A stretch of 28,291 nucleotides of DNA from a virus (lineage: Duplodnaviria > Caudoviricetes), in IMG/VR virus record IMGVR_UViG_3300033480_000013, positions 1-28,291 of that record, one strand, 5' to 3'. This document shows, piece by piece, positions 4,767-27,900 of the stretch. How positions within the stretch are numbered: the stretch's first letter is position 1; every line of letters begins with the position of its first letter. Position numbers and translations under genes: made by a program. The notes beneath the pieces are model-generated. The model saw only the letters and a list, made by a program, of their open reading frames with translations. It had not been told where the DNA came from and made no database searches.

Positions 4767-5644
4767 AGGTGCTGGACCAACGAATCGAGGCCGATTGGGC
4801 TCTGTACCACGGGGACACGATGGAGGTCATCAAGGGCATGGATGATGCCAGCATCGACCTCTCCGTGTTTTCTCCTCCGTTCGCATCGCTCTACACCTAC
4901 TCGGCGAGTGAGCGGGACCTTGGCAACTCCAAGGACTACGAGCAGTTCTTCGACGGGTTTGCCTTCCTGATTCGCGACCTGCTGCGGGTGACCAAGCCTG
5001 GGAGAATCGCTGCGGTCCACTGTCAGGATCTGAGCACGACCAAGGCCACCCATGGCGTGATAGGGCTGCGCGACTTCCCTGGCGACATCATCCGCGCGTT
5101 CTCCAAGGAAGGCTGGATCTACGACGGTCGCGTCACCATCGACAAGGATCCACAAGCGCAAGCCATCAGGACCAAGAGCAAGGCGCTGCTTTTCGTACAG
5201 CTCGAAAAGGACAGCACATGGTCTCGCCCGGCCATGGCCGACTACATCGTGCGATTCCGCGCGCCAGGTGACAACCCGGTGCGGGTGAAGCCGGACCTTA
5301 CCCGCGACGAATGGATCCTGTGGGCGCGCCCCATCTGGCAGGACATCGACGAATCCGACACTCTCAACACGGCGCTGGCGCGCGAGGAAAAGGACGAGCG
5401 CCACATCTGCCCACTGCAACTCGGGACCATCGAGCGGTGCGTGCGTCTTTGGTCCAATCCTGGCGAGGTTGTGTTCTCGCCGTTCGCTGGAATTGGAAGC
5501 GAAGGGGTGACGTCTCTTCGCCAGGGTCGCAGGTTCATCGGGTGCGAGCTGAAGGAAAGCTACTACAAGACAGCGCTGAGAAACCTTGAAGGCGCCGTCA
5601 GGCAGACCAGCATCTTCGACAGATTGAAAGGCTCGCCCCCATGA
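4763..5644 (+). CDS. N4-cytosine/N6-adenine DNA methyltransferase, beta-type motif order
   Basis: Catalytic FSPPF near the N-terminus, HICPLQL, SAM-binding FSPFAGIGSEG, GRRFIGCELK. Start at GTG 4763 or ATG 4754. Confidence 0.9.
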   Translation: MKVLDQRIEADWALYHGDTMEVIKGMDDASIDLSVFSPPFASLYTYSASERDLGNSKDYEQFFDGFAFLIRDLLRVTKPGRIAAVHCQDLSTTKATHGVIGLRDFPGDIIRAFSKEGWIYDGRVTIDKDPQAQAIRTKSKALLFVQLEKDSTWSRPAMADYIVRFRAPGDNPVRVKPDLTRDEWILWARPIWQDIDESDTLNTALAREEKDERHICPLQLGTIERCVRLWSNPGEVVFSPFAGIGSEGVTSLRQGRRFIGCELKESYYKTALRNLEGAVRQTSIFDRLKGSPP

Positions 5645-5865
5645 CCAAATCCATGCAACTCGGCGACGTCCCCAGCATCACGAACCCGCGCAAGCGCGTG
5701 CGGGCGAAGCGCCGGCCGGCGAAGGCCACCATGTGGCGGGGATGGGGCGTGCTATTTGGCGGGATCCTGAATACCCACGATGAGGTCATAGCGCGCGAAC
5801 TCGCAGCCAATGAGGGCGCCAAGCTCGTGCGCGTAACCGCCAAGCTGACGCCGGTGAAGCCATGA
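5641..5865 (+). CDS. Hypothetical protein
   Basis: ATGA overlaps at both ends. Confidence 0.55.
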   Translation: MTKSMQLGDVPSITNPRKRVRAKRRPAKATMWRGWGVLFGGILNTHDEVIARELAANEGAKLVRVTAKLTPVKP

Positions 5866-6167
5866 CCGACGCCGAGCGAGTGGCCGAGGCGCGCGTGATG
5901 CTGGCGAAGTGCATCGTCGAGTACCGAGGCGCATCCATCGGCCCCTCTCGTGATGTGGCGCTGGCGCTGGTCAACGACGCTATCGACGCCTTCGCCGCCG
6001 CCTGCGTTGCTGAGGCGTTCGAGTACCTTGCTGACGTCTACCAGAACTGCGCGAAGCAAGCGCGGCACAGCGTGAAGATGGACAACAGCCACCACTGGAT
6101 AGGTAAGGCGTGGGACCAGGCAGCTGTGATTGCCAAGCAGCAAGCCGAGAAAGCAGGCGGACGATGA
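5862..6167 (+). CDS. Hypothetical protein
   Basis: ATGA overlaps at both ends; protein-like composition. Confidence 0.6.
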   Translation: MTDAERVAEARVMLAKCIVEYRGASIGPSRDVALALVNDAIDAFAAACVAEAFEYLADVYQNCAKQARHSVKMDNSHHWIGKAWDQAAVIAKQQAEKAGGR

Positions 6168-10023: not shown

Positions 10024-10056
10024 TTGACGTGGTGGCGGCGCGGTCGTACCACGCGA
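10024..10056 (+). promoter_or_regulatory. Putative late promoter 1
   Basis: TTGACG-N17-TACCAC, containing GTACCACGCGA (10046-10056); intergenic, just before TerS. Confidence 0.6.
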
Positions 10057-10060
10057 GAGT

Positions 10061-10516
10061 GTGGCTGACACGCCATTGCCAGAAAATGAACGGGAGAAGG
10101 CTGCGCCCAATGCGGGCTACGGCAACCTGAGACCCATCAAGCCGGGTGAGGTTCGGAACAAGGCCGGCACCAACCGCTGGAAGAAGGCCCAGGCTCGGCT
10201 GGCCAAGTTCATGATGGAGTACGATCCGGATCATCCGGATCAAAGGCGCCTGGACAGCGTGCTGCGCGCGTCATTCGAGAGCGCCCTCGTCGTCGGGTTG
10301 AAGGGCGCCCCAGATCGCAAGCTTCTGATTGAGCAGACCGTCGGCCGTGCTCGCCAGCAACTCGACCTGTCAAACCAAGACGGAACCCTGCAGCCGGTAC
10401 GGGCCGACGCGATCCTATCGGCCCTCCAATCCGCCATAGCGGCGCGCAAGGCCGACGCCGAAGATGAGCAGGCCGCCACGATGGAGGCGCCCGGTGACGG
10501 CCATCCCGTTGAGTGA
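10061..10516 (+). CDS. terS: Terminase small subunit
   Basis: Directly precedes TerL. GNLRPIKPGEVRNKAG resembles the common TerS N-terminal motif. Confidence 0.7.
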   Translation: MADTPLPENEREKAAPNAGYGNLRPIKPGEVRNKAGTNRWKKAQARLAKFMMEYDPDHPDQRRLDSVLRASFESALVVGLKGAPDRKLLIEQTVGRARQQLDLSNQDGTLQPVRADAILSALQSAIAARKADAEDEQAATMEAPGDGHPVE

Positions 10517-11865: not shown

Positions 11866-13407
11866 ATGTCCAACTTCATCTCCCGCATGTTCAAGCGCCC
11901 CATCGCGGCCGACGCCATCGCGCAGGCCGAAGCGGCGGCCGTTGCCCAGCGTCGCACCGCCTTCGACGGGCTCGCCAACTACATCAGCGGCATGGGGACA
12001 CTCGCCGACCCGGCCCAGCACGACCGCTACCTGTCCGAGACCAACATGGACCGCGTGACGGCGGACGCCATCTTCCGCTCGAGCTGGCTCGGCCGCCGCG
12101 TCGTCACCACCATCGCCGACGACATGGTCCGCGAGTGGCGCACCGTCATGTGGGACGGCAGCCAGGACGACGACGGCATCTTCGACATTGCCCGCGAGGA
12201 AGAGCGCCTGCAGGCGCCGAAGCGCGTGCACTCTGCCATCAAGTGGGCGCGCCACTACGGAGGCGCCATCGTGGTGATGCTGATCAAGGGCCAGACCAGC
12301 CGGGAGGCCATGGCAGAGCCGCTAGACGTCGAGAAGGTCAAGAAGGGCGACCTGCAGAACCTCGTGGTGTTCGACCGCTGGCGCGTCTACGGGACGCCTC
12401 CCAACGTGCGGGACTACTCCGATACGTCGCTACTGGTGCCGCACCTGAACCAGACAATGGACGATCCCAACTTCGGGCTACCCGAGATGTACTACCTGGC
12501 CGACATCGGCAGCCCGATCCATCACACCCGCTGCATCCGCTTCGACGGCGAGGAGCTTCCCTGGTACGAGTGGGCGCGAAACTCCATGTGGCACGACAGC
12601 GTCTACAAGTCGCTCTACCGCGCGCTCAAGAGCTACGACTCGCTCATGCTCGGGTGCAGCCAGATCGTGCGGAAGGCGAGCGTCGACGTGTTCTCGGCCC
12701 AAGGCCTGGCTGAGCTGCTGTCGAGCAACGAGGGGACCACGAAGGCCCAACTGCGCTACCAGTACATGTCGCAGATGATGTCGCTCTACGGCGTGGTGGC
12801 GCTCGACAAGGACCAGGAGACCTTCGAGCGCAAGCCCGCCACCTTCGCCGGCCTGCGGGACCTGGCGGACCGCTTCGCCGTGGATGTGGCGGGGGCCGCC
12901 GACGTGCCGATGACCCGCCTGTTCGGCCAGAGCCCGGGCGGCCTGAACGCCACTGGCGAAAGCGACCTGCAGAACTATGACAACCACATCGCGGCCCGCC
13001 AGCGGTCGAACCTGTCGCCCCAGATGCAGCAACTCGACCATGTGCTGGTCAGGTCGGCGCTGGGGCGCATGCCGGAAGACTACCGCTTTGAGTGGAAGCC
13101 GCTGCGCCAGATGAGCCAGAAGGACAAAGCGGAGATCGACAAACTGAACGCCGATCGGGACGCTGTCTATGTCGACCGCGAGGTGGTGCTGCCCGAGGCG
13201 GTAGCGCGCGAGCTGCGGGCCGCCGGCACCTACCCGAACCTGACCCAGGAGGATGTGGACGATGTGGCCGAGGTCGGGGAGGAGATCACGCCGGTCGTGC
13301 CCACCAAGCAGCCGGCCGCGGTGGTGAAGGCGCCGCCGGAGGCCGAGGAACCCGAGGATGGCGAGGAAGAAGCCGCCACGCCCGCGCCTCTCCGAAAAAC
13401 AGCTTGA
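11866..13407 (+). CDS. Portal protein (DUF1073 type)
   Basis: DGLAN, ARHYGGA, IHHTRCIRF, GAADVPMTRLFGQSPGGLNATGESDLQNY; follows TerL. Confidence 0.92.
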   Translation: MSNFISRMFKRPIAADAIAQAEAAAVAQRRTAFDGLANYISGMGTLADPAQHDRYLSETNMDRVTADAIFRSSWLGRRVVTTIADDMVREWRTVMWDGSQDDDGIFDIAREEERLQAPKRVHSAIKWARHYGGAIVVMLIKGQTSREAMAEPLDVEKVKKGDLQNLVVFDRWRVYGTPPNVRDYSDTSLLVPHLNQTMDDPNFGLPEMYYLADIGSPIHHTRCIRFDGEELPWYEWARNSMWHDSVYKSLYRALKSYDSLMLGCSQIVRKASVDVFSAQGLAELLSSNEGTTKAQLRYQYMSQMMSLYGVVALDKDQETFERKPATFAGLRDLADRFAVDVAGAADVPMTRLFGQSPGGLNATGESDLQNYDNHIAARQRSNLSPQMQQLDHVLVRSALGRMPEDYRFEWKPLRQMSQKDKAEIDKLNADRDAVYVDREVVLPEAVARELRAAGTYPNLTQEDVDDVAEVGEEITPVVPTKQPAAVVKAPPEAEEPEDGEEEAATPAPLRKTA

Positions 13408-13435
13408 CACCTGCGGCGTGTGGTGTACCACGCGA
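13404..13435 (+). promoter_or_regulatory. Putative late promoter 2, heading the accessory block
   Basis: TTGACA (overlapping the portal stop)-N16-TACCAC, containing GTACCACGCGA (13425-13435). Confidence 0.6.
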
Positions 13436-13438
13436 TCC

Positions 13439-13555
13439 ATGCCAGTCACCCATCATCCGTCGAGCGAGACCGCGCGCACGCCCCTCGGTGACTGGCGTCG
13501 TTCGGGGCCAGCTTGTGCGCGGTCTCGCCGGGCGGGTGGGATGGTGATGCCGTGA
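13439..13555 (+). CDS. Possible 38-aa leaderless first gene of the accessory operon
   Basis: ATG 3 nt after the motif; its TGA overlaps GTG 13552. Confidence 0.35.
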   Translation: MPVTHHPSSETARTPLGDWRRSGPACARSRRAGGMVMP

Positions 13556-13908
13556 GCACGCTGGAGAAGCACCCGGGGCCGTGGAAAGCCGACTATGAGC
13601 GCGTGATGGCCGCGAATGGCGAGTGCGTTTTCAGCGGAGGAAGCGTCGACCTTGCCAACGCGGAGATTGGGTGGGGAGGCGACGAGGATGAAGGCAAGCG
13701 GCTCACCCTGGCCGCCCCCATCCTCCTGGAAGCCCTAGCTGTCGCCGTGTCCGAGAACGCTCCGCGCGACCTCACGCCGTTCAACCTGCTCATTGGGTGG
13801 CTGAACGGTGAGCCTGGGTATCCAGAGGTCGACCTCGAAGCGTTCCTGAAGTGGCTGCGGGAGGAGAGGATCACGATCGTCATTACGCGCGAGGGTGACC
13901 ACACGTGA
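13552..13908 (+). CDS. Phage hypothetical protein of the HxPGPW...AAP.LLEAL type
   Basis: KHPGPW ... RLTLAAPILLEAL. Confidence 0.7.
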   Translation: MSTLEKHPGPWKADYERVMAANGECVFSGGSVDLANAEIGWGGDEDEGKRLTLAAPILLEALAVAVSENAPRDLTPFNLLIGWLNGEPGYPEVDLEAFLKWLREERITIVITREGDHT

Positions 13909-14381
13909 AGACCTGCGGCACATGCGTCAGCTTCAAACGGCTGGAGTCGGATCCGAAGTGGGGCGAGTGCGGATACAAACTCTTGATACCCGATGCCGCC
14001 GAGTACGCCATTGACCCGGGTTTTCGAAACGTCCGTGAGGATGATGGGGTTGCTTGCCCGTGCTGGGCAAGAAAGAGTGACAACCCAGCCGAGTCGCTGC
14101 GGCACTTGATCAAGAGCGATCCGCAGTCGCTGGAAGCCATCGGCCAGCGCCTCGGTGCGACCTCTCCGGTGAAGCTCGACGAGGCATCTTTCGACGAAGC
14201 GGCCCGTGCGCTGGAACGCCCGGCGCTGCGCTGCCACGTCTGCGGCGCGCCCACCGAGAAGACCTACACCTTCGAGCGCACGTACGAAAACAAGGCGTAC
14301 GAGGCGCGGACCATGCGCTTTTCCGGCCTTCCACTTTGCGACGGCTGTGTGCCGCGGACGCAGGACGAGGAAGGAACCTGA
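13905..14381 (+). CDS. Cys-rich protein with two putative metal-binding modules
   Basis: CGTC...C...CPCW and CHVC...CDGC. Confidence 0.65.
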   Translation: MKTCGTCVSFKRLESDPKWGECGYKLLIPDAAEYAIDPGFRNVREDDGVACPCWARKSDNPAESLRHLIKSDPQSLEAIGQRLGATSPVKLDEASFDEAARALERPALRCHVCGAPTEKTYTFERTYENKAYEARTMRFSGLPLCDGCVPRTQDEEGT

Positions 14382-14860
14382 TGGGTGAGCACGCCACCAA
14401 CATCAACGCCCTCATTGCCAAGACGCTCCCCCACTTCCCGCCCGATGGTCGCGCCGGCCACGTCCAGCTCGACTACCGGGTAGCCCAGAAGCGGCACGTC
14501 TACCTCGTGGCCCCTGGCGCGCCCATGAACGAGGAAGGCATTGCAGCGCACGCCAAACTGTGCCAGGAGCGCGGGTGGCCAGCGCAGGAGATCCTGCCTT
14601 TGGGCCAGCCGCTGCCGCACGAGAAGTGCGACGTGGTGGTCATAGCCGCCGCGGTGTGGGTGGACACGACGCCGAATGGAGCGCGCCACGTCGTCAACCC
14701 GCAGACCAAGGAGATGGTGCTTCAGCCGCGCATGGGCGCGCATGCCATCCCGGGCGAGATTGCCCGCCTCGACATGGTTGAGTTCCTGGCGCACGCCGAG
14801 GCCTCGCTGGGGGAGGCGTCGCGCATCGTGCAGCCGGGGCTGCAGATGGTGAGGGACTGA
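14381..14860 (+). CDS. Hypothetical protein
   Basis: ATG 14381 (TGATG overlap, GAGGAAGG upstream); GC3-rich codons. Confidence 0.7.
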   Translation: MGEHATNINALIAKTLPHFPPDGRAGHVQLDYRVAQKRHVYLVAPGAPMNEEGIAAHAKLCQERGWPAQEILPLGQPLPHEKCDVVVIAAAVWVDTTPNGARHVVNPQTKEMVLQPRMGAHAIPGEIARLDMVEFLAHAEASLGEASRIVQPGLQMVRD

Positions 14861-14874
14861 GCACAAGGAGCAAC

Positions 14875-15363
14875 ATGAGCAAGAACACGCGCCAGCAATG
14901 GAAGGACAAGAGCCAGGGCCAGCAGGAGCCGCAGCCTGACCTCGCCGCTGGAGGACCCATCTCCGGACATCCTGGCCACGAGCCGGACCCGGTGGAAGTC
15001 GTCCGTCCGCTCGACCCTGCCGCAAAGCTGACTCCGCCGGATGTCGCGGAGGCGAAGCTACGCGAGCTTGCAGCCGCCGTTCCGCCGCTCGCCAAGGACG
15101 GCGCCATCGCGGCCAACCCCGACGCGCTCCAGGCGCCGAAGCCAGACGCCAAGGGCATCAGCAAAGGGCAGGTGTGGGTTGACGTTGTGGTCCCCGACCG
15201 CCCGATCAACAAGATGGGCCTCCGCCCCGGGGCCCGACTGAATCCGCTGGAGATCGAGACGCCCTATGGCGACGGCCGATGGATGGCCTGCTTCGTCGGC
15301 GAGCGCGCGACCAAGATCGAGGTGGACGCAGAGATGCTCAAGACCGGGAAGCTGAGGGCATGA
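14875..15363 (+). CDS. Pro-rich hypothetical protein with a small beta-rich C-terminal domain
   Basis: Strong RBS CACAAGGAG at 14862-14870; disordered P/Q/D N-terminus followed by ISKGQVWVD... Confidence 0.75.
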   Translation: MSKNTRQQWKDKSQGQQEPQPDLAAGGPISGHPGHEPDPVEVVRPLDPAAKLTPPDVAEAKLRELAAAVPPLAKDGAIAANPDALQAPKPDAKGISKGQVWVDVVVPDRPINKMGLRPGARLNPLEIETPYGDGRWMACFVGERATKIEVDAEMLKTGKLRA

Positions 15364-15653
15364 CATTCGCGGAGGCGGAGGAGAATTTCAGGAAGGCCCT
15401 GCGCGGTTTGGTCGTCGAGATTTTGCGTGGCTTATTTGGGCAACGGCTTTTGTCGGAAGCGGCGCAACTACCAGTAGAGAGCGACGAGTTACTCGCCGTC
15501 CTGAAGGCGCTCGCCGACAGGTGCGAGGCCGACACGCGGTTCATGTTCGACGAGGCCGCCTACGGAGTTGACCGGGAGAAGGGGCCGACAATGCCAGAGG
15601 AGGCCTTGGCCGCCCGCGCCCTCATCGATAGATTGGAGAAGCCAGAAGGATGA
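15360..15653 (+). CDS. Hypothetical protein
   Basis: ATGA overlaps at both ends: MTFAEAEENF... Confidence 0.6.
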   Translation: MTFAEAEENFRKALRGLVVEILRGLFGQRLLSEAAQLPVESDELLAVLKALADRCEADTRFMFDEAAYGVDREKGPTMPEEALAARALIDRLEKPEG

Positions 15654-17179
15654 AGCTCTACGCTTGCCTGACCCCATCCCACACCAAGATGTTCGAGCGC
15701 CACTTCATGGTGTCGCTGCCCAAGGAGTTCCGTGGGCGCAACCTCGTGGTGCGCAAGCTCAGGCAGAAGAGCAAGACAGGCGAGTTCGCGTCCGCTGGCT
15801 TCTTTGACACCTGCTTCCAAAAGGTAGAGTTCGTCATCGAGGCGTGTCGGTCGGAGAAGAAACCCTTTGTCTACTCTGACGTCGACGTTCGCTTCTACAC
15901 CCGATGCGGGAAAGACCTGGAGGAGCTACTCGGAACACACGACATTGCCTGCCAGTGGGACGGGCCCCGCGGTCGCTTCTGCACTGGCTTCATGGTCATG
16001 CGCCCATCTGAGAAGCTGATTGCCTTTTGGCAAGAGGTGCTCGAGCTCATGAAGAAGCGTCGGCTTCTCGACCAGGATGCCACCGACGAGGTCATCGCCA
16101 AGGGAGCCGAGCCACGGATGGCCGTGACAGCCCTGCCGGCGCGCTACTGGTCGTTCGGCCGGAACGACCACCACTGGATTCCTGGCATACCCGTCGACCC
16201 GCCGATCGACCTGGCGATGCACCATGCGAATTGGACCAAGGGCATACCCAACAAGCTGCTCTTGCTCGCCGAGGTGCAACAGACGGTGGAGGCTCGCAGG
16301 ACGAACCACCCGGAGAAGCTGCCCCACATGATCGAGCGGAACCCCATGGGGGCAACGGCGGCAATGGCCAGGATCCTTGACATCCACCGAGCCCAGATTC
16401 GCGCCTATCACCACCCGATGCCAATGGCGCTCGTGCTGCAATTCTGGAAGAAGGACAAGCACCGCGCGTGGGAGCTGGCCCGCATGATGGCAGACCTCGA
16501 ACCCGAGTTCCGCGATGACGTCGGGTTCTTCTTCGCGCGCCAGACGAACGTCACGCCGGCCAGCCAGGATCCAGAGTTCCTGGACACCATGCTCTACGTC
16601 GGCAAGAAGTTCCCCGTGACCGAGATCGAGGCGTTCGTCGACGAGTCCAAGCCGTATCCGGGCGTGTGCTTCGACCCGTGGGCATCGGCGGCACAGAAGA
16701 TCTCCGACCTGTACTTCACCGGCAAGATGCCTTACGGGCGCGCGTTCTTCTTCGAGGCTGACGGCTGCCCCATTGGCATCGACTGGATCAACCGGCTCAA
16801 GAAGGCCCACGAGGAGACGCTGCTCGCGGGCAAGCGCGTGACGGGGCCGCTGATGCGGTTCGGTGGCGTCGACCGGCTGCACTCACCGGGCGGGCACGTC
16901 AACGGAACGCTTATCATGGAGTGCTCGTTCTGGGAGGACCACCCGAGCCTGCGCCGATGCCCGCCCAATGACGCCTGGGACGTGTTTTTAGGGCCGGTGT
17001 TTCGCACCGAGCTTGGCACCACGAACCCAGACATCATCCTGAATCTACACGGCGGGCTTGGTCTTTCTGAGTCGCTGTACTGGATCAACCAGAAGGAGAC
17101 CGCTTTCATCACATCTCTTAAAGACGGTCTGCATCATCATTGGCTGCGGAAGTACATCAACTCCTTGGGGGCGCGGTGA
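15650..17179 (+). CDS. Two-domain glycosyltransferase (N-terminal nucleotide-diphospho-sugar transferase/GT77-like; C-terminal putative second GT-A domain)
   Basis: N-terminal: YSDVDV (DxD), CTGFMVMR, DQ, HHANW...K. C-terminal: FFFEADGCP...W, HVNG, DAWD. Confidence 0.8.
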   Translation: MKLYACLTPSHTKMFERHFMVSLPKEFRGRNLVVRKLRQKSKTGEFASAGFFDTCFQKVEFVIEACRSEKKPFVYSDVDVRFYTRCGKDLEELLGTHDIACQWDGPRGRFCTGFMVMRPSEKLIAFWQEVLELMKKRRLLDQDATDEVIAKGAEPRMAVTALPARYWSFGRNDHHWIPGIPVDPPIDLAMHHANWTKGIPNKLLLLAEVQQTVEARRTNHPEKLPHMIERNPMGATAAMARILDIHRAQIRAYHHPMPMALVLQFWKKDKHRAWELARMMADLEPEFRDDVGFFFARQTNVTPASQDPEFLDTMLYVGKKFPVTEIEAFVDESKPYPGVCFDPWASAAQKISDLYFTGKMPYGRAFFFEADGCPIGIDWINRLKKAHEETLLAGKRVTGPLMRFGGVDRLHSPGGHVNGTLIMECSFWEDHPSLRRCPPNDAWDVFLGPVFRTELGTTNPDIILNLHGGLGLSESLYWINQKETAFITSLKDGLHHHWLRKYINSLGAR

Positions 17180-17829
17180 GCAGCGACGGAACCATGTCCG
17201 CCATGCTGGCCCGTCTCGCGAAGCGGTGCACGCCGGCCAGCATCGTCGACGTTGGTGCGAGCAACGGTTCGTGGTCTACAACGGCGCTGCTTCACTGGCC
17301 CGCGGCGAAGACGCTGCTCATCGAGGCGGACCTGCGGCACTGGTCTGCGCTCGACGCCTTCGCCGAAAGCGTAGGCTCCCATGCCGTGCACGCCATGGCT
17401 GGCGATCACGTGGGCACCGGTCACTTCGCCTCCACGTCGGACCCATACGGAGGTCAAGGCAGTGACCACCCACGTGTGGACACGCGAGAGGCGCCGTGCA
17501 CCACGGTCGACCACGAGGTCGCGCGCCTTGGCCTGCCAGCCCCCTACCTGCTCAAGCTCGATACCCACGGGTACGAGAGGCAGATCATGGCCGGCGCGCA
17601 GTGGGTGCTGGCTGGCGCGGTGGCGCTCGTGATCGAGGCCTACACCTGCACCCTGCAGCCCGGGGCGTGGCGCTTCTGGGAGCTGTGCCAGTACCTGGAG
17701 GGCTTCGGGTTCGTCCCTACCGACGTGGCAGACGTCATGCGCCGGCCGCTCGACGGGCGCTGGTGGCAATGCGACATGGCGTGGGAGCGCGCGAGCGCGC
17801 CCCACGTGGGCGAGGGGAGGTATCGGTGA
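17176..17829 (+). CDS. FkbM-family SAM-dependent methyltransferase
   Basis: IVDVGASNGSWS, LIEA, TTVD, LLKLDTHGYERQIMAGA. Confidence 0.88.
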   Translation: MSSDGTMSAMLARLAKRCTPASIVDVGASNGSWSTTALLHWPAAKTLLIEADLRHWSALDAFAESVGSHAVHAMAGDHVGTGHFASTSDPYGGQGSDHPRVDTREAPCTTVDHEVARLGLPAPYLLKLDTHGYERQIMAGAQWVLAGAVALVIEAYTCTLQPGAWRFWELCQYLEGFGFVPTDVADVMRRPLDGRWWQCDMAWERASAPHVGEGRYR

Positions 17830-18008
17830 AGCCAGAGGAGATCAAGCAGGCCGCCAGGAAGGCCTTGTTCGGGCGTCCTGCGTGTGTCGCAGACTACACG
17901 GCCCAGATAGAAGTGACCAGAGACGAAGTGGTCTATCGGTACGGTAATGAGGAATGCCGTGAGTCTCGTGCCGGTGAGCAGATTGTGGATGCGGACACAG
18001 GCCGATGA
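17826..18008 (+). CDS. 60-aa hypothetical protein
   Basis: MKPEEIKQAARKALFG...; GTGA and ATGA overlaps bridge the two methyltransferases. Confidence 0.55.
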   Translation: MKPEEIKQAARKALFGRPACVADYTAQIEVTRDEVVYRYGNEECRESRAGEQIVDADTGR

Positions 18009-18643
18009 ACGCCCAGCGCCCGCACCTCATCGCCCGCCTCATCGGCACCCAGGAGGCCGAGGCGTGGGCAATCATCCGCGCCCTGGAGGCTACCCGCGCG
18101 CTACCGGGCGACGTCTGCGAGTTCGGCGTCGCCCAGGGAGCGACCTCGGCCCTCATGGCCAACGAGCTACTCGAGACCGCCGAGCGCCTGCACCTGTTCG
18201 ACAGCTTCGCCGGGCTGCCAGCCCCCACCAAGAAGGACGAGCTGCTCCACGACATCTTCGGCCTGAAGAGCATGGCAGCCTACGCCGGCACGATGGCGTG
18301 CGGGCCAGACATGGCGCTGGCGCGGCTCGCGACCGTGGGGTTTCCACCCGAGCGCACCGTCATCCACGCCGGGTTCCTGCGCGAGACCCTGGCAGGCCCA
18401 AACCTGCCCGCGGCGGTGCGGTTCGCCTACGTGGACGTTGACCTCTACGAGTCGACCCTCCAGGCGCTGGACTTCCTAACCGTCGCGATGGTGCCGGGCG
18501 GGGTGGCGCTGGTTGACGACTACGGGTTTTTCAGCTCGGGCGCCCAGACGGCGGTCGAGGAAGTGGCGGCCTGCGGCGGATGGGATGTGCGACCGAGCGA
18601 GCCGGAGGCGCTGCACTTTTGCACGCTGACCAGGAGGCCGTGA
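18005..18643 (+). CDS. TylF/MycF/NovP-family sugar O-methyltransferase
   Basis: PGDVCEFGVAQG, LFDSFAGLP, GFLRETL, YVDVDLYEST, VDDY. Confidence 0.9.
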   Translation: MNAQRPHLIARLIGTQEAEAWAIIRALEATRALPGDVCEFGVAQGATSALMANELLETAERLHLFDSFAGLPAPTKKDELLHDIFGLKSMAAYAGTMACGPDMALARLATVGFPPERTVIHAGFLRETLAGPNLPAAVRFAYVDVDLYESTLQALDFLTVAMVPGGVALVDDYGFFSSGAQTAVEEVAACGGWDVRPSEPEALHFCTLTRRP

Positions 18644-19398
18644 CCGTGACCGAGCCGCTGCACCTCTTTCTCCACATCCCCAAGACGGCCGGGGTCACGA
18701 TCCACGAGATCGCCGTGAGGCAGTACCCGCCAGGGTGCACCTTCATCGTCAACGAGGATCCATCCCAAAAGATCGAGGATCTGTTGGCCTTGACGCCAGG
18801 GACGCGAGCTGGGTTGCGCTACGTGGGCGGCCATTTCTCGTACGGCTTTCACAGCCATTTCCTCCGCCCCTGCCGCTACGTCACCATGCTGCGCGACCCG
18901 GCCGACCTTCTGGTGTCTTGTTACCACTACATACTCCGCTGCCAGTACCAGCCCAACCACGGTCCGCTGGTCGACGGGAATGTGGAGTTCGCTCAGTGGA
19001 TCTCGCAGGAATGGCTCGGCCACATCGACAACCATCAACTACGCTGCCTGCTCGGCAAGTGGCCGCCAGAGCCCATCGCGCGCTCCGACCTTGAACTTGG
19101 CAAGCGACTCCTGACCGAGGAGTTCGCAGCCTTCGGGCTGGTCGAGCGGTTCGACGAGTCGATGCTGTTCTTCCAGGATGCCTTCGGGTGGGGCGTGCCG
19201 ACCTACACCGCGCGCAACGTGTACCACCACCCGCAGGACGCCGACGTGCTGACGCCGGAGACGCGGGGGATCATCACCCGACACCACGCTATGAGCTGCG
19301 AGCTGGTGGCGTTTGCCCGACGGCTGTTTGACCAGCGGGTGCGGGATGCGGGGCAGGCGTTTACGGCGCGGCTAAGGCGGTTCCAGGGGACCACGTGA
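18640..19398 (+). CDS. PAPS-dependent sulfotransferase (Sulfotransfer_2/Gal-3-O-sulfotransferase-like)
   Basis: 5'-PSB FLHIPKTAGVTI, 3'-PB TMLRDP....VSCY, GLVERFDESM. Confidence 0.88.
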   Translation: MTVTEPLHLFLHIPKTAGVTIHEIAVRQYPPGCTFIVNEDPSQKIEDLLALTPGTRAGLRYVGGHFSYGFHSHFLRPCRYVTMLRDPADLLVSCYHYILRCQYQPNHGPLVDGNVEFAQWISQEWLGHIDNHQLRCLLGKWPPEPIARSDLELGKRLLTEEFAAFGLVERFDESMLFFQDAFGWGVPTYTARNVYHHPQDADVLTPETRGIITRHHAMSCELVAFARRLFDQRVRDAGQAFTARLRRFQGTT

Positions 19399-20150
19399 CC
19401 GCGACTGTCCGCATCATCCACAACCTGGCCCGCTCGGGCGGCACCATCTTCGCGCGCTGCCTCGGATGCATGGACAGCGTGGCGCTCCTGAGCGAGATCC
19501 ACCCGCTGACGGTCGGCATCTTCGGCGCTACCCAACAGGCGGCCGAGTGGCACGGCCTACAGGTGCCCCCGGGCCAGAGCTTCGTGGCCAACATCGGTGC
19601 CCTGGCCGAGGCCGCGGCTGGCGCCGGCAAGGCCCTCGTGCTGCGCGGCTGGGACCACGTCGACCTCATGCCGTGCCCCCACAACGGATGGGTGCCCAGC
19701 ATGCACTCCGAGCTGTTCGACACGCTGGCGGGCCGCTTCGAGGTGCGGCGCTTGGCGCTTGTGCGCGAGCCACTGGCCATGTGGGCAAGCCTGCGGCGGC
19801 ACTGGGCGAAGGCGACGCAGCCGCAGTACGGAGACGTCTCGCTGGCGGACTTCCTGCGCGGCTACCGGGCCTTTGCCGAGATGGCCTACACGATGCCGCT
19901 CGTGCGATACGAGGACTTCTGCGCCGACCCGGTCGGAACGCTGGCCGAGGTGTGCGAGCTGCTCGACCTGCGGTTCGACGCCGGCTGGCCAGGCAAGTGG
20001 CGGCACTACCGCAAGGTCACGGGCGACATTGCGAACCAGGGCGAGAGGCGGGGCATCGCCATGCCGCCGCCGGTGCGCGACCCAGAGCTCGAAGCGAAGG
20101 CCGCGGGGAATCCTGACTACCGGGTGGCGGTGGCGCTGTTGGGGTACTAG
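19395..20150 (+). CDS. Second PAPS-dependent sulfotransferase of a different subfamily
   Basis: 5'-PSB HNLARSGGT, LSEIHP, 3'-PB LVREP....AS, VRYEDFCADP. Confidence 0.85.
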   Translation: MTATVRIIHNLARSGGTIFARCLGCMDSVALLSEIHPLTVGIFGATQQAAEWHGLQVPPGQSFVANIGALAEAAAGAGKALVLRGWDHVDLMPCPHNGWVPSMHSELFDTLAGRFEVRRLALVREPLAMWASLRRHWAKATQPQYGDVSLADFLRGYRAFAEMAYTMPLVRYEDFCADPVGTLAEVCELLDLRFDAGWPGKWRHYRKVTGDIANQGERRGIAMPPPVRDPELEAKAAGNPDYRVAVALLGY

Positions 20151-20383
20151 CGATCGCTGCGAACCGCTTTCCGCAGATCTTCCAGAAGCTCGGCAAATGG
20201 CATCCGCTCTGGGACGGTCAACTCAATGGGTCCAGTGTCTCCGCCGTAGCTGTAGAGGGACGATGCATCGGCGTCGTAGACGTGGACGGTGCGGTAGGGT
20301 ATCCCGTCTTTCTCGTACATCCCGCCTCCGTCATCGATAAAGCCAAGAGCAATGATAGCGGCGATGAATTCGTCGCGAGTCAT
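20147..20383 (-). CDS. Hypothetical protein
   Basis: MTRDEFIAAIIALGF...; ATGA overlap with the upstream minus-strand gene. Confidence 0.6.
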   Translation of the reverse strand: MTRDEFIAAIIALGFIDDGGGMYEKDGIPYRTVHVYDADASSLYSYGGDTGPIELTVPERMPFAELLEDLRKAVRSDR

Positions 20384-20937
20384 GGCTTCGCTCCAACCAG
20401 CTCGCGCAGCTTGGTCCACCACCCCGACGGTGGTGTCAACGGGGAGAAGTGGTCTCGGCTATGCTCCTCCTGGAACTTTGCAACGCCCTCCACGTGCTCC
20501 CGCACGGCCGCCAGCGGGTCGGGCTCCCCGTCCGGCTTCCAGAATTTGCCCCTGTCCTTGGCGCCGAAAATGCCGGCCCTGCCGGTGACGGTGAAACCGG
20601 GTTCGCGCGCTACCCCGCTCGGAGCTTCCGAGAAGTCAGTGTGCCCCTCGACGTTGTGGGCACACCATGCATCTCCGTCGAGGGTAAGAACTATCGTCCC
20701 TGGCTCCGGCAAACCACCCTCGCCGATCATCTCGCGGAGCATGGCAGCGTGCCCCTCTTGAACCGAGATCATGACGGTGTCGTCCTTGAGCGCGTTCCGG
20801 GATGCGTCGACAGCGTCTCCGGCAGACCTGACCGCACGGGCGGTAGCCAAACGGTACTCAACTTGGCGGGCCATCTCTACTCCATACTCACGCGCGAACG
20901 CAGCCGCCCAGATCCTCTTCTCGCCGGTGGTCATCAT
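20380..20937 (-). CDS. Hypothetical protein
   Basis: 185 aa with protein-like composition; 4-nt overlaps at both ends. Confidence 0.65.
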   Translation of the reverse strand: MMTTGEKRIWAAAFAREYGVEMARQVEYRLATARAVRSAGDAVDASRNALKDDTVMISVQEGHAAMLREMIGEGGLPEPGTIVLTLDGDAWCAHNVEGHTDFSEAPSGVAREPGFTVTGRAGIFGAKDRGKFWKPDGEPDPLAAVREHVEGVAKFQEEHSRDHFSPLTPPSGWWTKLRELVGAKP

Positions 20938-21185
20938 GGCGTTGTCCCTGTCTTCTTGAGATACCGAGCGAGGTAGCTACTCACCAGGTTTCTGCCAGGC
21001 TCGTCGGCGTCCCATAGATCGCCGCTGTCTTTGATGGTTCCGTCAGTGTGCCGCCAGACCATGCGCCCATCTTCGAGCAAAAGTTGCGTGATGTGCGCCG
21101 CCGGTGCGTATGCGGCAACGATGGGGAGACCCGTCTCGCGACGGTAGCGCGCCATCTTCTGCGGGCTGACGACTTGGGTGCCCAT
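20934..21185 (-). CDS. Hypothetical protein
   Basis: 83 aa; overlap-coupled. Confidence 0.6.
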   Translation of the reverse strand: MGTQVVSPQKMARYRRETGLPIVAAYAPAAHITQLLLEDGRMVWRHTDGTIKDSGDLWDADEPGRNLVSSYLARYLKKTGTTP

Positions 21186-21400
21186 TACGGGCTCTTTCCC
21201 GTACCGTCCCGCTCCGCGATCTTGAGCGTCACCTTCGCCACTGTCCCGCTCGACACCGGCCCGCCGAGGGACGCGATCTTGAGCGAGTCCGGGCAGACGT
21301 CAAGTAGCTTGGACGTTCGACAGAGCCCCTTGGCGGCGATGATGGCGTTCACCCTGTCGAGCTGGTCCTGGGAGAGCCGCGCTTCCGCCCGGGCCATCAT
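21185..21400 (-). CDS. Small protein, possibly HTH/Cro-like
   Basis: KGLCRTSKLLDVCPDSLKIASLGGPV loosely fits an HTH; lies next to divergent promoters. Confidence 0.5.
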   Translation of the reverse strand: MMARAEARLSQDQLDRVNAIIAAKGLCRTSKLLDVCPDSLKIASLGGPVSSGTVAKVTLKIAERDGTGKSP

Positions 21401-21476: not shown

Positions 21477-21484
21477 GAACTTCT

Positions 21485-21516
21485 TTCGCCCGCCTGTCGC
21501 TTTGCGTACCACGCGA
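21485..21516 (+). promoter_or_regulatory. Putative late promoter 3, heading the head/tail genes
   Basis: GTACCACGCGA at 21506-21516; weak -35 TTCGCC 16 nt upstream of TACCAC. Confidence 0.5.
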
Positions 21517-21525
21517 ATCAGAACC

Positions 21526-22497
21526 GTGGGCCTGCGAATTGCCAATCTGGTCAGGGCAGCGCGGGGCAGCCGCCCGCCTGGGAAGAGAAGCGCCCGGTTC
21601 AAGACGTTGCGGCCGGTCCGCCCCAGCAAGCGCACCGAGATCTGGTACCGCGGCCAACTCTTGGGGCTCGTGGCCCACCTGCGCCGGCTGATTACCGAGC
21701 GCTTCCAGGGGCTCCGCGACGAGTGGCCGGCCCGCACCGGTGACGCCGCCGTGGTGGGAGACCGCGAGCCGGACGTCGGGACGTTCGCTGATCCCAACTT
21801 CGAGGGCGCGCCCCGCATCCAGATGGTGATCGAGGGCGTGAAGCGCGACATGCCAGGGTTGCTGGAGTTCGCCAGCAAGACCTCCGTCAGCGCAGCTACC
21901 AAGAACCTGGCCAAGATCGACGACGACCTGGCCTACGTCATCGAGCAGCAGCTCGGCGTCGACGTGGGGCCAATCCTGGAAGGCTTCGGCCCGCTGTCGC
22001 AGCAGATGCGCAAGGCGGTGCAGGACAACATCGAGCTGATCCGGTCCATCCCGACGGAGTACCTCGACCGGGTCAAAGAGACGCTCTCGACGGCGTGGCA
22101 AGAGGGCGTCGGGTTCGAGCAGGCGGGCAAGATGCTCGAGCGCGACTTCGCCACCACCGAGAGCCGGGCCGCCCTCATCGCGCGGGACCAGACCCAGAAG
22201 ATGGCCGGGCAGTTCAACCGCGAACGGCAGCAGCAAGTCGGGATCGACAAGTACCAGTGGCGCTGCACCCGAAAGAACACGCGGCCCGAGCACCTGGCGA
22301 TGGAGACCGGTGGTGAGGGCGGCAAGGGGATCTACCGCTGGGACGAGCCGGGCCCGCTCAAGGGGACGATCGACGGAGAGCCGTGCCACCCAGGAATCGA
22401 CGTGAATTGCCATTGTCTCGCCGTCCCATTTGTTGACCTCTCCGACGGTAACGAGGACTTCTGGGCCAGCATGCGGGCTGCACAGGAGGCCGCTTGA
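21526..22497 (+). CDS. Head morphogenesis protein (SPP1 gp7/Mu gpF family)
   Basis: NIELIRSIP, RAALIARDQTQK, YQWR...RPEH, HPGIDVNCHC. Start tentatively GTG 21526. Confidence 0.88.
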   Translation: MGLRIANLVRAARGSRPPGKRSARFKTLRPVRPSKRTEIWYRGQLLGLVAHLRRLITERFQGLRDEWPARTGDAAVVGDREPDVGTFADPNFEGAPRIQMVIEGVKRDMPGLLEFASKTSVSAATKNLAKIDDDLAYVIEQQLGVDVGPILEGFGPLSQQMRKAVQDNIELIRSIPTEYLDRVKETLSTAWQEGVGFEQAGKMLERDFATTESRAALIARDQTQKMAGQFNRERQQQVGIDKYQWRCTRKNTRPEHLAMETGGEGGKGIYRWDEPGPLKGTIDGEPCHPGIDVNCHCLAVPFVDLSDGNEDFWASMRAAQEAA

Positions 22498-23729: not shown

Positions 23730-24257
23730 ATGTCTACACCCTCTCTCTCGACGGCTGGTGGCGCGCTCCTGTCTCTCGGTTACGCCGGTCAGCCGGCCAA
23801 CCTGGAGGAGAGCTCCACCTTCACCCTCCACAACGAAAGCACCACCGGCGGCGACGACAGCGCCGGCATGCTGGACTTCGGCATCGCGGTCGCGCGCGGC
23901 ACGAACGACGGCTACTGCAAGCGCATCGCGGCCGACGGGGATCTCCCGGTCGGCATCACGGTCCGCCACCCGACCATGCCGGCCACCACCACGGGCTACG
24001 TGGGCTACAAGGCATCGACCGCGGTTCCCATCATGTACCTCGGCTGCATCTACGCCGAGGCCTACGAGGACGTGGTCGCGGGCGACCAGGTCATCAGCGT
24101 CACAGCCCAGGGCGGGAAGCTCTCGGGCACCCACTCGGGGATCGTCGGGGCCGGCCGCGTGCTGGTGCCCAACGCCTACTGGGTCAAAGCGGTCTCCGCT
24201 GGATCGGTCGGACTCATCCGGCTCACCGGCGTGTGCAACCCCAACACCACCACGTAA
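23730..24257 (+). CDS. Head decoration/cement protein
   Basis: Lies between DUF2213 and the major capsid gene; G/A/T-rich, GYAGQ, FGIAV; RBS TAAGGAG. Confidence 0.75.
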   Translation: MSTPSLSTAGGALLSLGYAGQPANLEESSTFTLHNESTTGGDDSAGMLDFGIAVARGTNDGYCKRIAADGDLPVGITVRHPTMPATTTGYVGYKASTAVPIMYLGCIYAEAYEDVVAGDQVISVTAQGGKLSGTHSGIVGAGRVLVPNAYWVKAVSAGSVGLIRLTGVCNPNTTT

Positions 24258-25810: not shown

Positions 25811-26174
25811 GCGCGCGGAGGCGACGGCCTACCGGCAAATCACGAAGTACGGCACCACCGGCATCCTCACGCGCAAGGTGTTGGCGTCGGTCTCGACCGC
25901 AGGAGCCGTCACCTACGGGACGGCCCTGACCGACACCCTCAAGTGCGTCTTCCTGCCCCTGAGCGAGTACACCGACAACCTGGAGGAGCGAAACTCGCTC
26001 GCCCAGCGGGGGGTGCGGTATCTCGCGATGGCTGCCCGGGACTTGTCGCTCGAGCCGCGCCCTCAGGACACGGTCACGATCGGCGCCACCGTCTGGGACA
26101 TTCAATCTTCCACCCCCATCAACCCCGACGGCGCGCACCCAATCTCCCACTGTGCGCTGGTGGTGAAACTGTGA
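25794..26174 (+). CDS. Head closure/neck protein
   Basis: Gene position; ITKYG...LTR, PRPQDTVTIG, INPDG; GTG 25794 with GGAG upstream. Confidence 0.7.
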   Translation: MSTATERAEATAYRQITKYGTTGILTRKVLASVSTAGAVTYGTALTDTLKCVFLPLSEYTDNLEERNSLAQRGVRYLAMAARDLSLEPRPQDTVTIGATVWDIQSSTPINPDGAHPISHCALVVKL

Positions 26175-26563
26175 ACTTCACGCTGGACCTCCAGAAGTGG
26201 GCCAAGGGCGCCAAGCACACCATTGGCGAGATCCGCCGGTACGTGCTTATCAACATGGGGGGCGCCATCATCGCCGATACGCCAGTCGCGACCGGGATGC
26301 TCCAGGGCAACTGGCAGACGAGCGTCGGGGCGCCCAAGACGTCCGAGGTGCCACTGCGCCCGGCCAACATGGCACAGGCAGAGTTGGTCAACGCTGCGGC
26401 GACCGTCAAGGGCGATCAGCCGGTCTACATCGTCAACCACTGCCCCTATGCCCGCGCCATCGAATACGGCCATTCCAAGAAGCGGCCCGAGGGAATGGTC
26501 CGCAAGAACGTGGCCAAGTTCCAGCGTGTCGTGAAGAACGCCGTCCGGGAGGGCAAGCTGTGA
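26171..26563 (+). CDS. HK97 gp10-like neck/tail completion protein
   Basis: TPVATGMLQGNW, YARAIEYGHS, PEGMVR. Confidence 0.85.
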   Translation: MNFTLDLQKWAKGAKHTIGEIRRYVLINMGGAIIADTPVATGMLQGNWQTSVGAPKTSEVPLRPANMAQAELVNAAATVKGDQPVYIVNHCPYARAIEYGHSKKRPEGMVRKNVAKFQRVVKNAVREGKL

Positions 26564-26967
26564 CGTGCCAGGCGGTCCATACGGCGCTCACGACCGCGAT
26601 CCTGACGTCGCTCGGCTCGACGCCTGTAGATCGCGAGAATGCCCCATTTACCAAGCCCGCAGATTCCGTGTGGGCCCGCCTCACGTACCTGCCCAACCTG
26701 CCGAGCGTCGAGACTCTAAGCGACAACGGCCAGGACATGGAGGACGGGATCGTCCAGATCGATTTCATGTTCCCGACCGGGGGCGGCGACAAGGCGGCAG
26801 ACGACGTGACCGAGACGTTTCGGGCTGCCTTCAAGGCCGGCAAGAAGCTCACCTCGAGCGGCCAGGCCGTCACGATCACCAACTGCGGCAGGTCGCCCGG
26901 CCGCAAGGAAGACAACTGGTTCATCGTCAGCGTGACCATCAGTTGGTACGCGCTCGTTTCGAGATGA
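26560..26967 (+). CDS. Tail terminator-like protein
   Basis: ENAPFTKP, WARL, GIVQID..P.G.G; lies just before the tail tube. Confidence 0.78.
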   Translation: MTCQAVHTALTTAILTSLGSTPVDRENAPFTKPADSVWARLTYLPNLPSVETLSDNGQDMEDGIVQIDFMFPTGGGDKAADDVTETFRAAFKAGKKLTSSGQAVTITNCGRSPGRKEDNWFIVSVTISWYALVSR

Positions 26968-26985
26968 CGACACAAGGAGAACACC

Positions 26986-27900
26986 ATGGCTGATGGCTCA
27001 AGGCACTCACTGCACTACATCGTCGAGGTCGTTTACGGGACATGCCCCGCGACTCCGGCGTTCAAGCCCATTCGCCACCGCGGCGTCAGCGGTGGGCTCA
27101 CGAAGGACACCTTCCAGAGCGAGACCCTGCGGTCAGACCGTCAGATCGAAGACCTGCGGCACGGGGCCCGCAAGGTGGCGTTCGACATCCCGATCGAGTG
27201 GAGCTACACGTCGTTCGACGATCTGCTCGAGGCGACTCTATGCGGGACCTGGAGCGCGAACGTCCTAAAGGCCGGCACCACCCGCCGGTCCTACGCGATC
27301 GAGAGCCACTTCGCCGACGTCGCGACCGGCGGCTACCACCTGTTCGAGGGCTGCGTCTTCAACAAGGCGCAGTTCCAGATCGACGCCAACGCGATGGTGA
27401 CGGGCTCCTTCGGCGTCGTGGGCCAGGACAACACGGTCGGCGATGCCGCGACGGGCGGCGCTTCCTATGCGGACCCCGCCACCACATCGCCGTTCGATGC
27501 CTTCACGGGCACCATCGACGAGGGCGGATCTCCCATCGCGACTGTCACCGCGATCTCGCTCGACCTCGACAACGGCGTGGAGCCTCGGTTCGTGGTCGGG
27601 TCCGACCTGACGCTGCTGCCCTCCATCGGGCGATCGACCCTCACGGGCCAGGTCACGGCCTACTTCGAGAACAGCACGCTGCTGAATAAGTTCATCAACG
27701 AGACCGAAAGCTCCATCGAGGTCGAGCTCGAAGACGTGGCGGGCAACACGCTGACCATTCTGCTGCCGCGGATCAAGTACACCGGCGGCCCGGTCAACGT
27801 CGGCGGGTTCGGCCCCCTGACGGTCGCGCTCCCATTCCAGGCCCTCTACGAGGCCTACACCAACGACAGCAACATCGTCATCACGCGCGCCGCCGCATAG
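26986..27900 (+). CDS. Tail tube (major tail) protein
   Basis: E..YGT.P, SETLRSDRQ, RRSYAIE, GQVTAYFEN, LPRIKY; strong RBS; no sheath gene precedes it. Confidence 0.88.
   Translation: MADGSRHSLHYIVEVVYGTCPATPAFKPIRHRGVSGGLTKDTFQSETLRSDRQIEDLRHGARKVAFDIPIEWSYTSFDDLLEATLCGTWSANVLKAGTTRRSYAIESHFADVATGGYHLFEGCVFNKAQFQIDANAMVTGSFGVVGQDNTVGDAATGGASYADPATTSPFDAFTGTIDEGGSPIATVTAISLDLDNGVEPRFVVGSDLTLLPSIGRSTLTGQVTAYFENSTLLNKFINETESSIEVELEDVAGNTLTILLPRIKYTGGPVNVGGFGPLTVALPFQALYEAYTNDSNIVITRAAA

Follow-up and report, generated by a model that had tools for sequence, protein, structure and literature searches.

What does a compact run of sugar-modifying genes do inside the head module of a tailed phage? 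The question is raised by the viral record IMGVR_UViG_3300033480_000013, of which the whole stretch analysed here (the window) is a 28.3-kb piece of a tailed phage genome. Its positions 15650-20150 carry six open reading frames (ORFs), neighbours being chained by 4-base start/stop overlaps (ATGA/GTGA). As listed in the initial annotation, and as found again here at the same positions (Table 1), these encode a two-domain glycosyltransferase (GT), an FkbM-family methyltransferase, a 60-aa orphan ORF, a TylF-family methyltransferase and two sulfotransferases (ST1 and ST2). The present analysis shows that the enzyme set is a real, coherent and variable glycan-building cassette. Judging from the sequences, we propose, with a probability of roughly 0.6, that it would O-glycosylate the C-terminal tail of the capsid decoration protein, the glycan being capped with methyl and sulfate groups and built from host donors; virion glycosylation in any form we regard as somewhat more probable still.

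In the AlphaFold model of the GT (mean predicted local distance difference test, pLDDT, 89.9) both halves adopt GT-A folds, and a metal-binding DxD-type motif is found in each of the two domains, D77-x-D79 in domain 1 and E369-x-D371 in domain 2, both invariant across 38 homologues. Domain 1 (residues 1-215) is PF03407-like (E 1.5e-8, above the cut-off, N-domain only), and its best structure match is the first domain of PBCV-1 A064R (A064R-D1; Z 15.3, root-mean-square deviation 3.1, 187 aligned residues, 12% identity), tied with other GT-A enzymes such as the GT domain of LH3 (Z 15.0). Domain 2 (residues 250-509) belongs to a mostly viral GT-A family without a name. It matches Fringe, B3GalT6 and LgtC in structure at Z 14-15 (Manic Fringe: Z 14.8, root-mean-square deviation 3.3, 203 aligned residues) and no Pfam family; its 30 look-alike clusters in the Atlas have no common family either, the three listed being 94-96% viral. 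The whole chain resembles the tandem GT-A enzymes LH3, LARGE1 and Mimivirus R699. A tblastn search of 50,697 annotated phage records gave no match for domain 2, ST1 or ST2, and with the full GT it reached just two jumbo phage records, both unannotated; there is therefore no cultured relative to test.

Both methyltransferases lie above the Pfam cut-off (36.2 vs 22.7 bits for PF05050 in FkbM). The FkbM protein has no sequence match in the PDB, while the TylF profile finds 5i10/4cdz (E 3e-10), the former of which we take to be a spinosyn-type O-methyltransferase, together with MycF, NovP and CalS11. The E-x-G-V motif for S-adenosylmethionine (SAM) and the DxD and DDY metal/catalytic motifs are present in TylF, their residues presumably having the same roles as in MycF. 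Matches to TylF were obtained in 34 of the 50,697 phage records, and the best 30 of these 34 are M. avium mtfD and GT/methyltransferases of cluster F mycobacteriophages, Che8 gp108 among them. With the C-terminal methyltransferase domain of Che8 gp108, TylF shares 30% identity over 154 columns.

The Pfam matches of the two sulfotransferases fall marginally under the cut-off (21.6 vs 22 bits and 26.7 vs 27 bits; for ST2, PF13469 with E 8e-6). Profile comparison with the PDB places ST1 with the heparan sulfate 6-O- and 2-O-sulfotransferases HS6ST3 (E 1.6e-23) and HS2ST1 (E 1e-12), and ST2 with the CurM sulfotransferase (E 1.2e-6), tyrosylprotein sulfotransferase being a weak further match. The motifs for 3'-phosphoadenosine 5'-phosphosulfate (PAPS), namely the 5'-phosphosulfate loop K/R-T/S-x-G/T and the 3'-phosphate R...S, are kept in both enzymes, the conserved residues in the alignments being K15, R85 and S93 in ST1 and R13, R124 and S132 in ST2. 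The likeness to HS6ST/HS2ST suggests a sugar hydroxyl as the acceptor of ST1. In half of the viral contig collection, the ST1 profile gave 31 loci, all distant (at most 31% identity). The initial annotation thus named the two-domain glycosyltransferase, the FkbM and TylF-family methyltransferases and the pair of dissimilar PAPS-type sulfotransferases correctly, and the catalytic residues, whose loss it had put forward as counter-evidence, are intact in the alignments of GT, TylF, ST1 and ST2.

The constant element of the cassette becomes apparent from the relatives, the closest of which is L055. The GT homologue search returned 68 matching proteins. All of 25 GT-bearing records, several of them fragments or flank-only views, have domain 2; domain 1 was seen in 13 of them, FkbM and a DUF6492-like third GT in 11 each, ST2 in 7, TylF in 4 and ST1 in 2. 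A survey of relatives for the same gene set, as had been suggested, therefore returns a constant GT domain 2 and not a conserved six-gene set, the methyl- and sulfotransferases being variable add-ons. Around the flanking genes, 358 loci were surveyed, 144 rows of which have both portal and MuF. The GT lies between the two in 21 of these rows, corresponding to the window and 11 distinct relatives; no cassette family lies there in the other 123, which were not de-duplicated and in 5 of which portal and MuF are on opposite strands. Selection plays some part in this survey: GT-bearing phages supplied the sequences for the portal and MuF profiles, and the ST2 search contributed four of the relatives; L207 and L287 were retrieved via portal or MuF alone.

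The partners are also repeatedly fused. A GT-GT-TylF chain is encoded in P0024 and P0030, a DUF6492-like GT-FkbM-ST2 chain in the podovirus-like L202, domain 2 with a second GT in L287, and a TPR/GT2-like region with the tandem GT in L058. The joining of GT to TylF, and of GT to FkbM and a sulfotransferase, indicates that the enzymes belong to one pathway. Domain 2 is found nearby in 6 of 6 viral loci retrieved with the ST2 profile. On sequence grounds, the cassette is one variable pathway arranged around a constant domain 2.

The candidate acceptor is the decoration protein encoded after MuF. In the window it ends NPNTTT, the last four residues (172-175) having pLDDT below 50 and being flexible in the model, and the major capsid protein and the tail tube end in Ala. 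Decoration proteins of GT-bearing phages have an extension closing on Thr or Ser, whereas most others stop at the last strand. When 66 sequences were reduced to 47 clusters at 90% identity and 3 partial clusters were set aside, at least two Ser/Thr among the last three residues were found in 12 of the 13 GT-positive clusters and in none of the 31 GT-negative ones. Counted over the whole decoration and capsid proteins, Ser/Thr residues do not clearly separate the groups, the difference being confined to the termini. A prediction made in advance held: the distant L225 and L297, with RTTT tails and the GT not in view, carry domain 2 elsewhere (E 6e-88 and 1e-84), and the tail-less L215 and L294 are without it. 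Domain 2 occurs in none of the other 47 of the 49 whole records searched, 11 of the 47 being at least 90% complete and 5 (L205, L283, L284, L286 and L293, four of them with Ser/Thr tails) being uninformative fragments that end in or beside the portal-MuF interval; PF00535 matched 0 of the 49. In the three phages whose GT follows replication genes, all three decoration proteins are Ser/Thr-tailed (YSAT, KTTT and KTTS). The fold of the decoration protein is also that of the base of the phi29 head fibre, the C-terminus of which points outward. E217 gp24, of the same type, is described as forming 180 surface trimers (PMC10329688).

According to the reading that we favor, the two GT-A domains, the two SAM-dependent O-methyltransferases and the two sulfotransferases would form one cytoplasmic pathway. 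Domain 2, the sole constant part, would start the glycan by attaching a sugar to the tail Ser/Thr residues of the decoration protein, domain 1 or the DUF6492-like GT would lengthen the glycan, TylF and FkbM would O-methylate it, and ST1, and probably ST2, would sulfate it, with nucleotide sugars, SAM and PAPS supplied by the host. Because the enzymes that lengthen and cap the glycan vary, the surface glycan would differ from phage to phage, which, speculatively, might alter charge, adsorption to the extracellular matrix or resistance to proteases and predators. The methylated, sulfated virion glycan suggested in the initial annotation gains support from the conserved location of the GT among head genes, the enzyme fusions and the tracking of tail and GT, and further from the homology of TylF to Che8 gp108 and from near-complete relatives that have no integrase or DNA-hydroxylation genes (see below); we continue to infer it. 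A wider version, which we hold tentatively and at slightly under even odds, is that the widespread domain 2 family would be the initiating enzyme of virion O-glycosylation in non-actinobacterial tailed phages, reading a built-in Ser/Thr tag on the decoration protein. Exchangeable genes for extension, methylation and sulfation would then make the coat specific to each phage, and among these coats would be a sulfated one resembling glycosaminoglycans, the first such surface in a phage.

A number of points weigh against glycosylation of the virion tail as proposed here. The tail criterion was picked post hoc, and the last residue alone is Ser/Thr in 13 of 13 GT-positive and 8 of 31 GT-negative clusters. 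One GT-negative clade has Thr-rich extensions ending AGS/AGA/AGV, and many GT-negative records are fragments. On a quick capsid tree (supports 80-95) the GT-positive phages fall in one 21-row group (support 81), so that there are only about two independent tail-GT contrasts; the group also includes L215 and L294, both without tail and without GT, and the tree labels L291 as GT-negative although its record carries the GT. The cassette is inverted relative to the head genes in L200, L201 and L287, and in L004, L005 and L008 the GT stands behind genes for DNA polymerase, helicase and thymidylate kinase. By the counts given above, the sulfotransferases are a minority add-on (7/25 and 2/25), and the substrates of the nearest solved relatives of ST2 are tyrosine and hydroxyls other than those of sugars. 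The window GT shows no detectable sequence similarity to the Che8 GTs, so that membership in their family is not established. Finally, the window encodes a LexA-like repressor, compatible with a temperate life style, and the promoter-like site discussed below resembles a host sigma-70 site and gives no proof of late timing.

The host is perhaps a Myxococcota bacterium. Of 89 Myxococcales genomes, two contain contigs of GT-bearing phages, namely G055 and a bin whose title is Myxococcales bacterium (L134, G001); binning may mislead. A full-length adenosine 5'-phosphosulfate (APS) kinase match (E < 1e-40) occurs in 48 of the 89 Myxococcales genomes, including both with GT-bearing contigs, which makes a supply of PAPS by the host plausible. 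A Pfam scan of the 89 ORFs of the complete relative G091 and 46 ORFs of G093 found no PAPS-making, nucleotide-sugar or membrane conversion (Wzy/Gtr-type) enzyme. Searches of 5 relatives (55-100% complete, two at least 90% and three incomplete) found no integrase or resolvase in any of them, and no 2-oxoglutarate (2OG)-Fe(II) oxygenase (PF13640) or member of the thymidylate-synthase family (PF00303), all with positive controls; PF12851 (Tet_JBP) matched 0 of 4 relatives, and no control matched either. Both DNA modification and lysogenic conversion are weakened by the lack of integrase, resolvase and hydroxylating genes. Within the cassette, 19-residue hydropathy points to no enzyme that clearly spans the membrane or is exported; the two highest values (1.75 and 1.68) belong to the methyltransferases, which are soluble-fold families.

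These data bear on the explanation that survives best beside ours, which we nevertheless consider unlikely: that the cassette modifies a host surface glycan (O-antigen, exopolysaccharide or glycolipid precursors, at the cytoplasmic face), either against superinfection or for conversion of a carrier cell. All enzyme types of the cassette are common in bacterial surface-glycan loci, M. avium mtfD is among the TylF matches, the partner set varies, the promoter-like sequence is similar to host sigma-70 sites, and the LexA-like repressor adds to this. Variable cyanophage GT clusters, which resemble the cassette, as serotype-conversion clusters do, in being variable GT and O-methyltransferase sets in phages, are read in this way in the available text of PMC7824862. 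Unlike those clusters, the cassette has no nucleotide-sugar or membrane enzymes, and its link to head genes and decoration tail is constant. The lack of integrase and resolvase in all five relatives and of a membrane-spanning or exported cassette enzyme argues against surface modification, which would also leave the co-variation of decoration tail and GT unexplained.

We have also considered that the GT glycosylates the virion while the sulfotransferases, especially ST2, act elsewhere (for example on tyrosine residues, a small molecule or a protein of the host), leaving the glycan unsulfated. This is a still less probable arrangement, with the CurM-type and tyrosylprotein neighbours of ST2 and the absence of sulfotransferases from most GT-bearing records in its favor. 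It accords poorly with the heparan-sulfate O-sulfotransferase type of ST1, and with the fusion of ST2 to GT and FkbM in L202 and its place next to the GT in all six viral loci. An accumulation of independent morons at an insertion hotspot, with no common pathway, is quite improbable. It would fit the varying content of the interval, which also takes in unrelated genes (an MmeI-like methylase in L006, small ORFs of no known family), and not the repeated fusions, the overlap coupling, the recurrence of the same set in the podovirus-like L202 or a third-position G+C content (GC3) of 0.83-0.92 in the cassette vs 0.86-0.92 in the head genes. Hypermodification of DNA, in which sugars and then methyl or sulfate groups would be put on phage bases before packaging, is the least credible explanation, since, against the glycosylation of DNA by phage GT-A enzymes (10.1101/2023.12.21.572611, available text), the C5 methylase in the window, the GT after replication genes in L004, L005 and L008 and a nearby 2OG-Fe(II) oxygenase in the distant L020, there stand five relatives in which neither that oxygenase nor a thymidylate-synthase-family hydroxymethylase was found, the complete G091 (100%, 89 ORFs) with orphan DNA methylases and a dUTPase and no DNA polymerase, and DNA-glycosylation papers whose main text does not mention sulfotransferase, FkbM or TylF.

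Virion glycosylation in mycobacteriophages was reportedly treated by Freeman et al. in 2023, and to our knowledge only a few of these phages have been shown to glycosylate their particles. Che8, Corndog and Myrna are described as modifying virion proteins through their own GTs (PMC12363180; the subject is also treated in PMC10955285), and in Che8 the capsid and tail-tube proteins are stated to carry their glycans C-terminally (PMC12619734). Both of these Che8 proteins end in Ser. The window resembles Che8 in its overlap-coupled GT genes, in the TylF-like methyltransferase domain (gp108) and in candidate acceptors with Ser/Thr at a structural-protein C-terminus, and by this analogy the cassette likely works as the known virion-glycosylation systems do. 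It differs in that the cassette lies inside the head module and the Che8 genes at the genome end, in that the predicted acceptor is the decoration protein instead of capsid and tail tube, in the addition of two sulfotransferases and FkbM, and in the host, which is probably not an actinobacterium. By profile, no sequence similarity between the window GT and Che8 gp108-110 is detectable, and Che8 gp110/Corndog gp38 are not named among the 50 best viral structure matches of the GT; a remote kinship at the level of the GT-A fold may exist.

A second parallel is the giant virus PBCV-1, in which A064R (GT-GT-methyltransferase) and A061L are described as extending and doubly O-methylating a capsid glycan (PMC9614988). 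Two GT domains and two O-methyltransferases are thus common to both systems, P0024 and P0030 have the same GT-GT-methyltransferase order, and domain 1 resembles A064R-D1 in fold, as noted above. PBCV-1 is, however, a eukaryotic virus with N-linked glycans, for which the available text of that source reports no sulfotransferase. Viral GT clusters are combined with sulfate-metabolism genes in Moumouvirus australiensis and Cotonvirus, sulfated virion glycans being only suggested there (PMC9614988, available text); these, too, are giant eukaryotic viruses, and their clusters, unlike the cassette, make their own nucleotide sugars. The initial annotation had stated that no characterised phage builds such a glycan. 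Because the pairing of GT and methyltransferase was already known (PBCV-1 A064R/A061L and, by sequence, Che8 gp108), the new part is the sulfation together with this GT family; no phage- or virus-encoded sulfotransferase and no phage precedent for sulfation was found in the open-access literature. If the favored reading is true, phage particle glycosylation extends beyond mycobacteriophages to phages of another host group, by an independent GT family and with sulfation added, and the cassette names a short, testable acceptor tag. As the particle meets no antibody in its habitat, one would have to ask what purpose a glycan coat serves in natural phage populations; for glycoengineering, a compact set of soluble enzymes that places methylated, sulfated glycans on a C-terminal tag would be of use.

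With regard to expression, it had been claimed that one promoter-like motif is common to the terminase, the head genes and the cassette. The 11-mer GTACCACGCGA, a pattern picked by eye, has exactly three copies in the window, at 10046, 13425 and 21506, with 0.37 matches expected in a one-mismatch search and 2 of 100 shuffles reaching three. All three stand 3-9 nt upstream of a start codon (10046-10061, 13425-13439 and 21506-21526), which suggests leaderless or near-leaderless transcripts; by sequence, the site resembles promoters of the sigma-70 type, and the leaders would be short. The second copy precedes a 38-aa ORF that opens the gene chain running into the cassette, and both complete copies are retained in L055. 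The three exact copies bear the claim out, and it is qualified by the 2.2 kb separating the nearest upstream copy from the GT, by the incomplete MuF copy and by a sigma-70 scan that called none of the three; a general repeat finder did not place the motif among its 20 largest families. A loose search of relatives found similar sites in some (in L011, one just before the GT) and none in many, and a shared late regulon is therefore not established. Just after the second site, within the 38-aa ORF, a 28-nt inverted repeat (13454-13538; 79% complementary, 29-nt gap) is possibly a regulatory leader.

Table 1. Positions in the window of the cassette genes, flanking genes, predicted acceptor and promoter-like motif copies
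Feature	Position	Strand	Evidence or remark
Tandem GT-A glycosyltransferase, 509 aa	15650..17179	+	PF03407, AlphaFold model
FkbM-family SAM O-methyltransferase	17176..17829	+	PF05050 E 8.6e-9; SAM motif VDVGASNG
60-aa orphan ORF, overlap-coupled at both ends	17826..18008	+	
TylF/MycF/NovP-family sugar O-methyltransferase	18005..18643	+	PF05711 E 6.5e-17; DxDLYES and DDY intact
Sulfotransferase 1 (ST1), HS6ST/HS2ST/Gal3ST carbohydrate type	18640..19398	+	HIPKTAG, TMLRDP...S intact
Sulfotransferase 2 (ST2), Sulfotransfer_3, CurM-ST/TPST-like	19395..20150	+	LARSGGT, VREP...S intact
Capsid cement/decoration protein, Pam3 gp6/E217 gp24 type	23730..24257	+	PF22758; fold match 8hdt E 7e-10
Portal protein, upstream flank	11866..13407	+	PF06381 E 4.5e-95
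MuF head morphogenesis protein, downstream flank	21526..22497 (alternative start 21433)	+	PF04233
Six small ORFs of no known family (38, 118, 158, 159, 162, 97 aa)	13439..15653	+	Mostly overlap-coupled
First motif copy, TTGACG-N17-TACCAC-GCGA	10024..10056	+	Directly before probable small terminase start (GTG 10061)
Second motif copy, TTGACA-N16-TACCAC then GCGA	13404..13435	+	7 nt before ATG of 38-aa ORF
Third motif copy	21506..21516	+	9 nt before MuF GTG 21526; without TTGAC half

The gene order of the window is LexA-like repressor, DnaB, SNF2 helicase, two DNA methylases, terminase, portal and MuF, followed by protease, cement protein, major capsid protein and tail tube. The location between portal and MuF given in the initial annotation is right in that both genes flank the block, and needs amending in that six small ORFs upstream and four downstream intervene. 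The six upstream ORFs bridge the promoter-like site and the GT, and a homologue of the 162-aa ORF stands upstream of the GT in L055, L199, L203 and L207. The four downstream ORFs (20147-21400) are small, lie on the minus strand and are preceded by a TTGACA-type site near 21483; one of 71 aa recurs divergently just before MuF in L055, L006, L011, L203 and L283 and may be a regulator. For MuF the likely start is GTG 21526, homologues beginning at the same position. The 60-aa ORF has a low GC3 (0.64) and no match in Pfam, PHROG or the Atlas, was not found in L055 or in any of the 24 other GT-bearing records tabulated, and is probably dispensable. In L055, a 215-aa Cys-rich ORF of lower GC3 and without a Pfam match (L055:11529-12176) lies between GT and FkbM; we take it to resemble mobile endonuclease-associated proteins.

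Further genes accompany the GT in other relatives. A family of about 215 aa with an N-terminal YYxPV/L motif, without an informative Pfam match, follows the GT in three records (L010:12336-12980, L134:2750-3400, L006:5837-7093) and is possibly another GT. The cassette of L287 contains a weak match to a STELLO-like GT (4252-5292, minus strand) and that of L006 an NAD-dependent sugar epimerase (4605-5888). Around homologues of individual GT domains (L060, L061, L118), larger glyco-clusters comprise fucosyltransferases, FkbM, Methyltransf_24 and radical SAM/SPASM proteins. The portal is inverted with respect to MuF and the other head genes in L367:8619-10085, L215, L225, L294, L295 and L297. An RF-1-domain (ArfB-like) protein is encoded in the relative G090 (L379:1925-2290, minus strand). 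In the window, a Phage_tube_2 tail tube directly follows the neck genes (25943-27900), and G090 and G091, which have the same head module, carry a DUF3383 sheath-type contractile tail (compared region, L371:7380-17155), so that a tail-module swap has probably occurred between them and the window. In podovirus-like GT-bearing phages, the product of the gene after the major capsid gene has a Ser/Thr-rich tail, KTSSVTP in L377:12868-13353 and KLSSASP in L366:2039-2521, and is a candidate for another acceptor.

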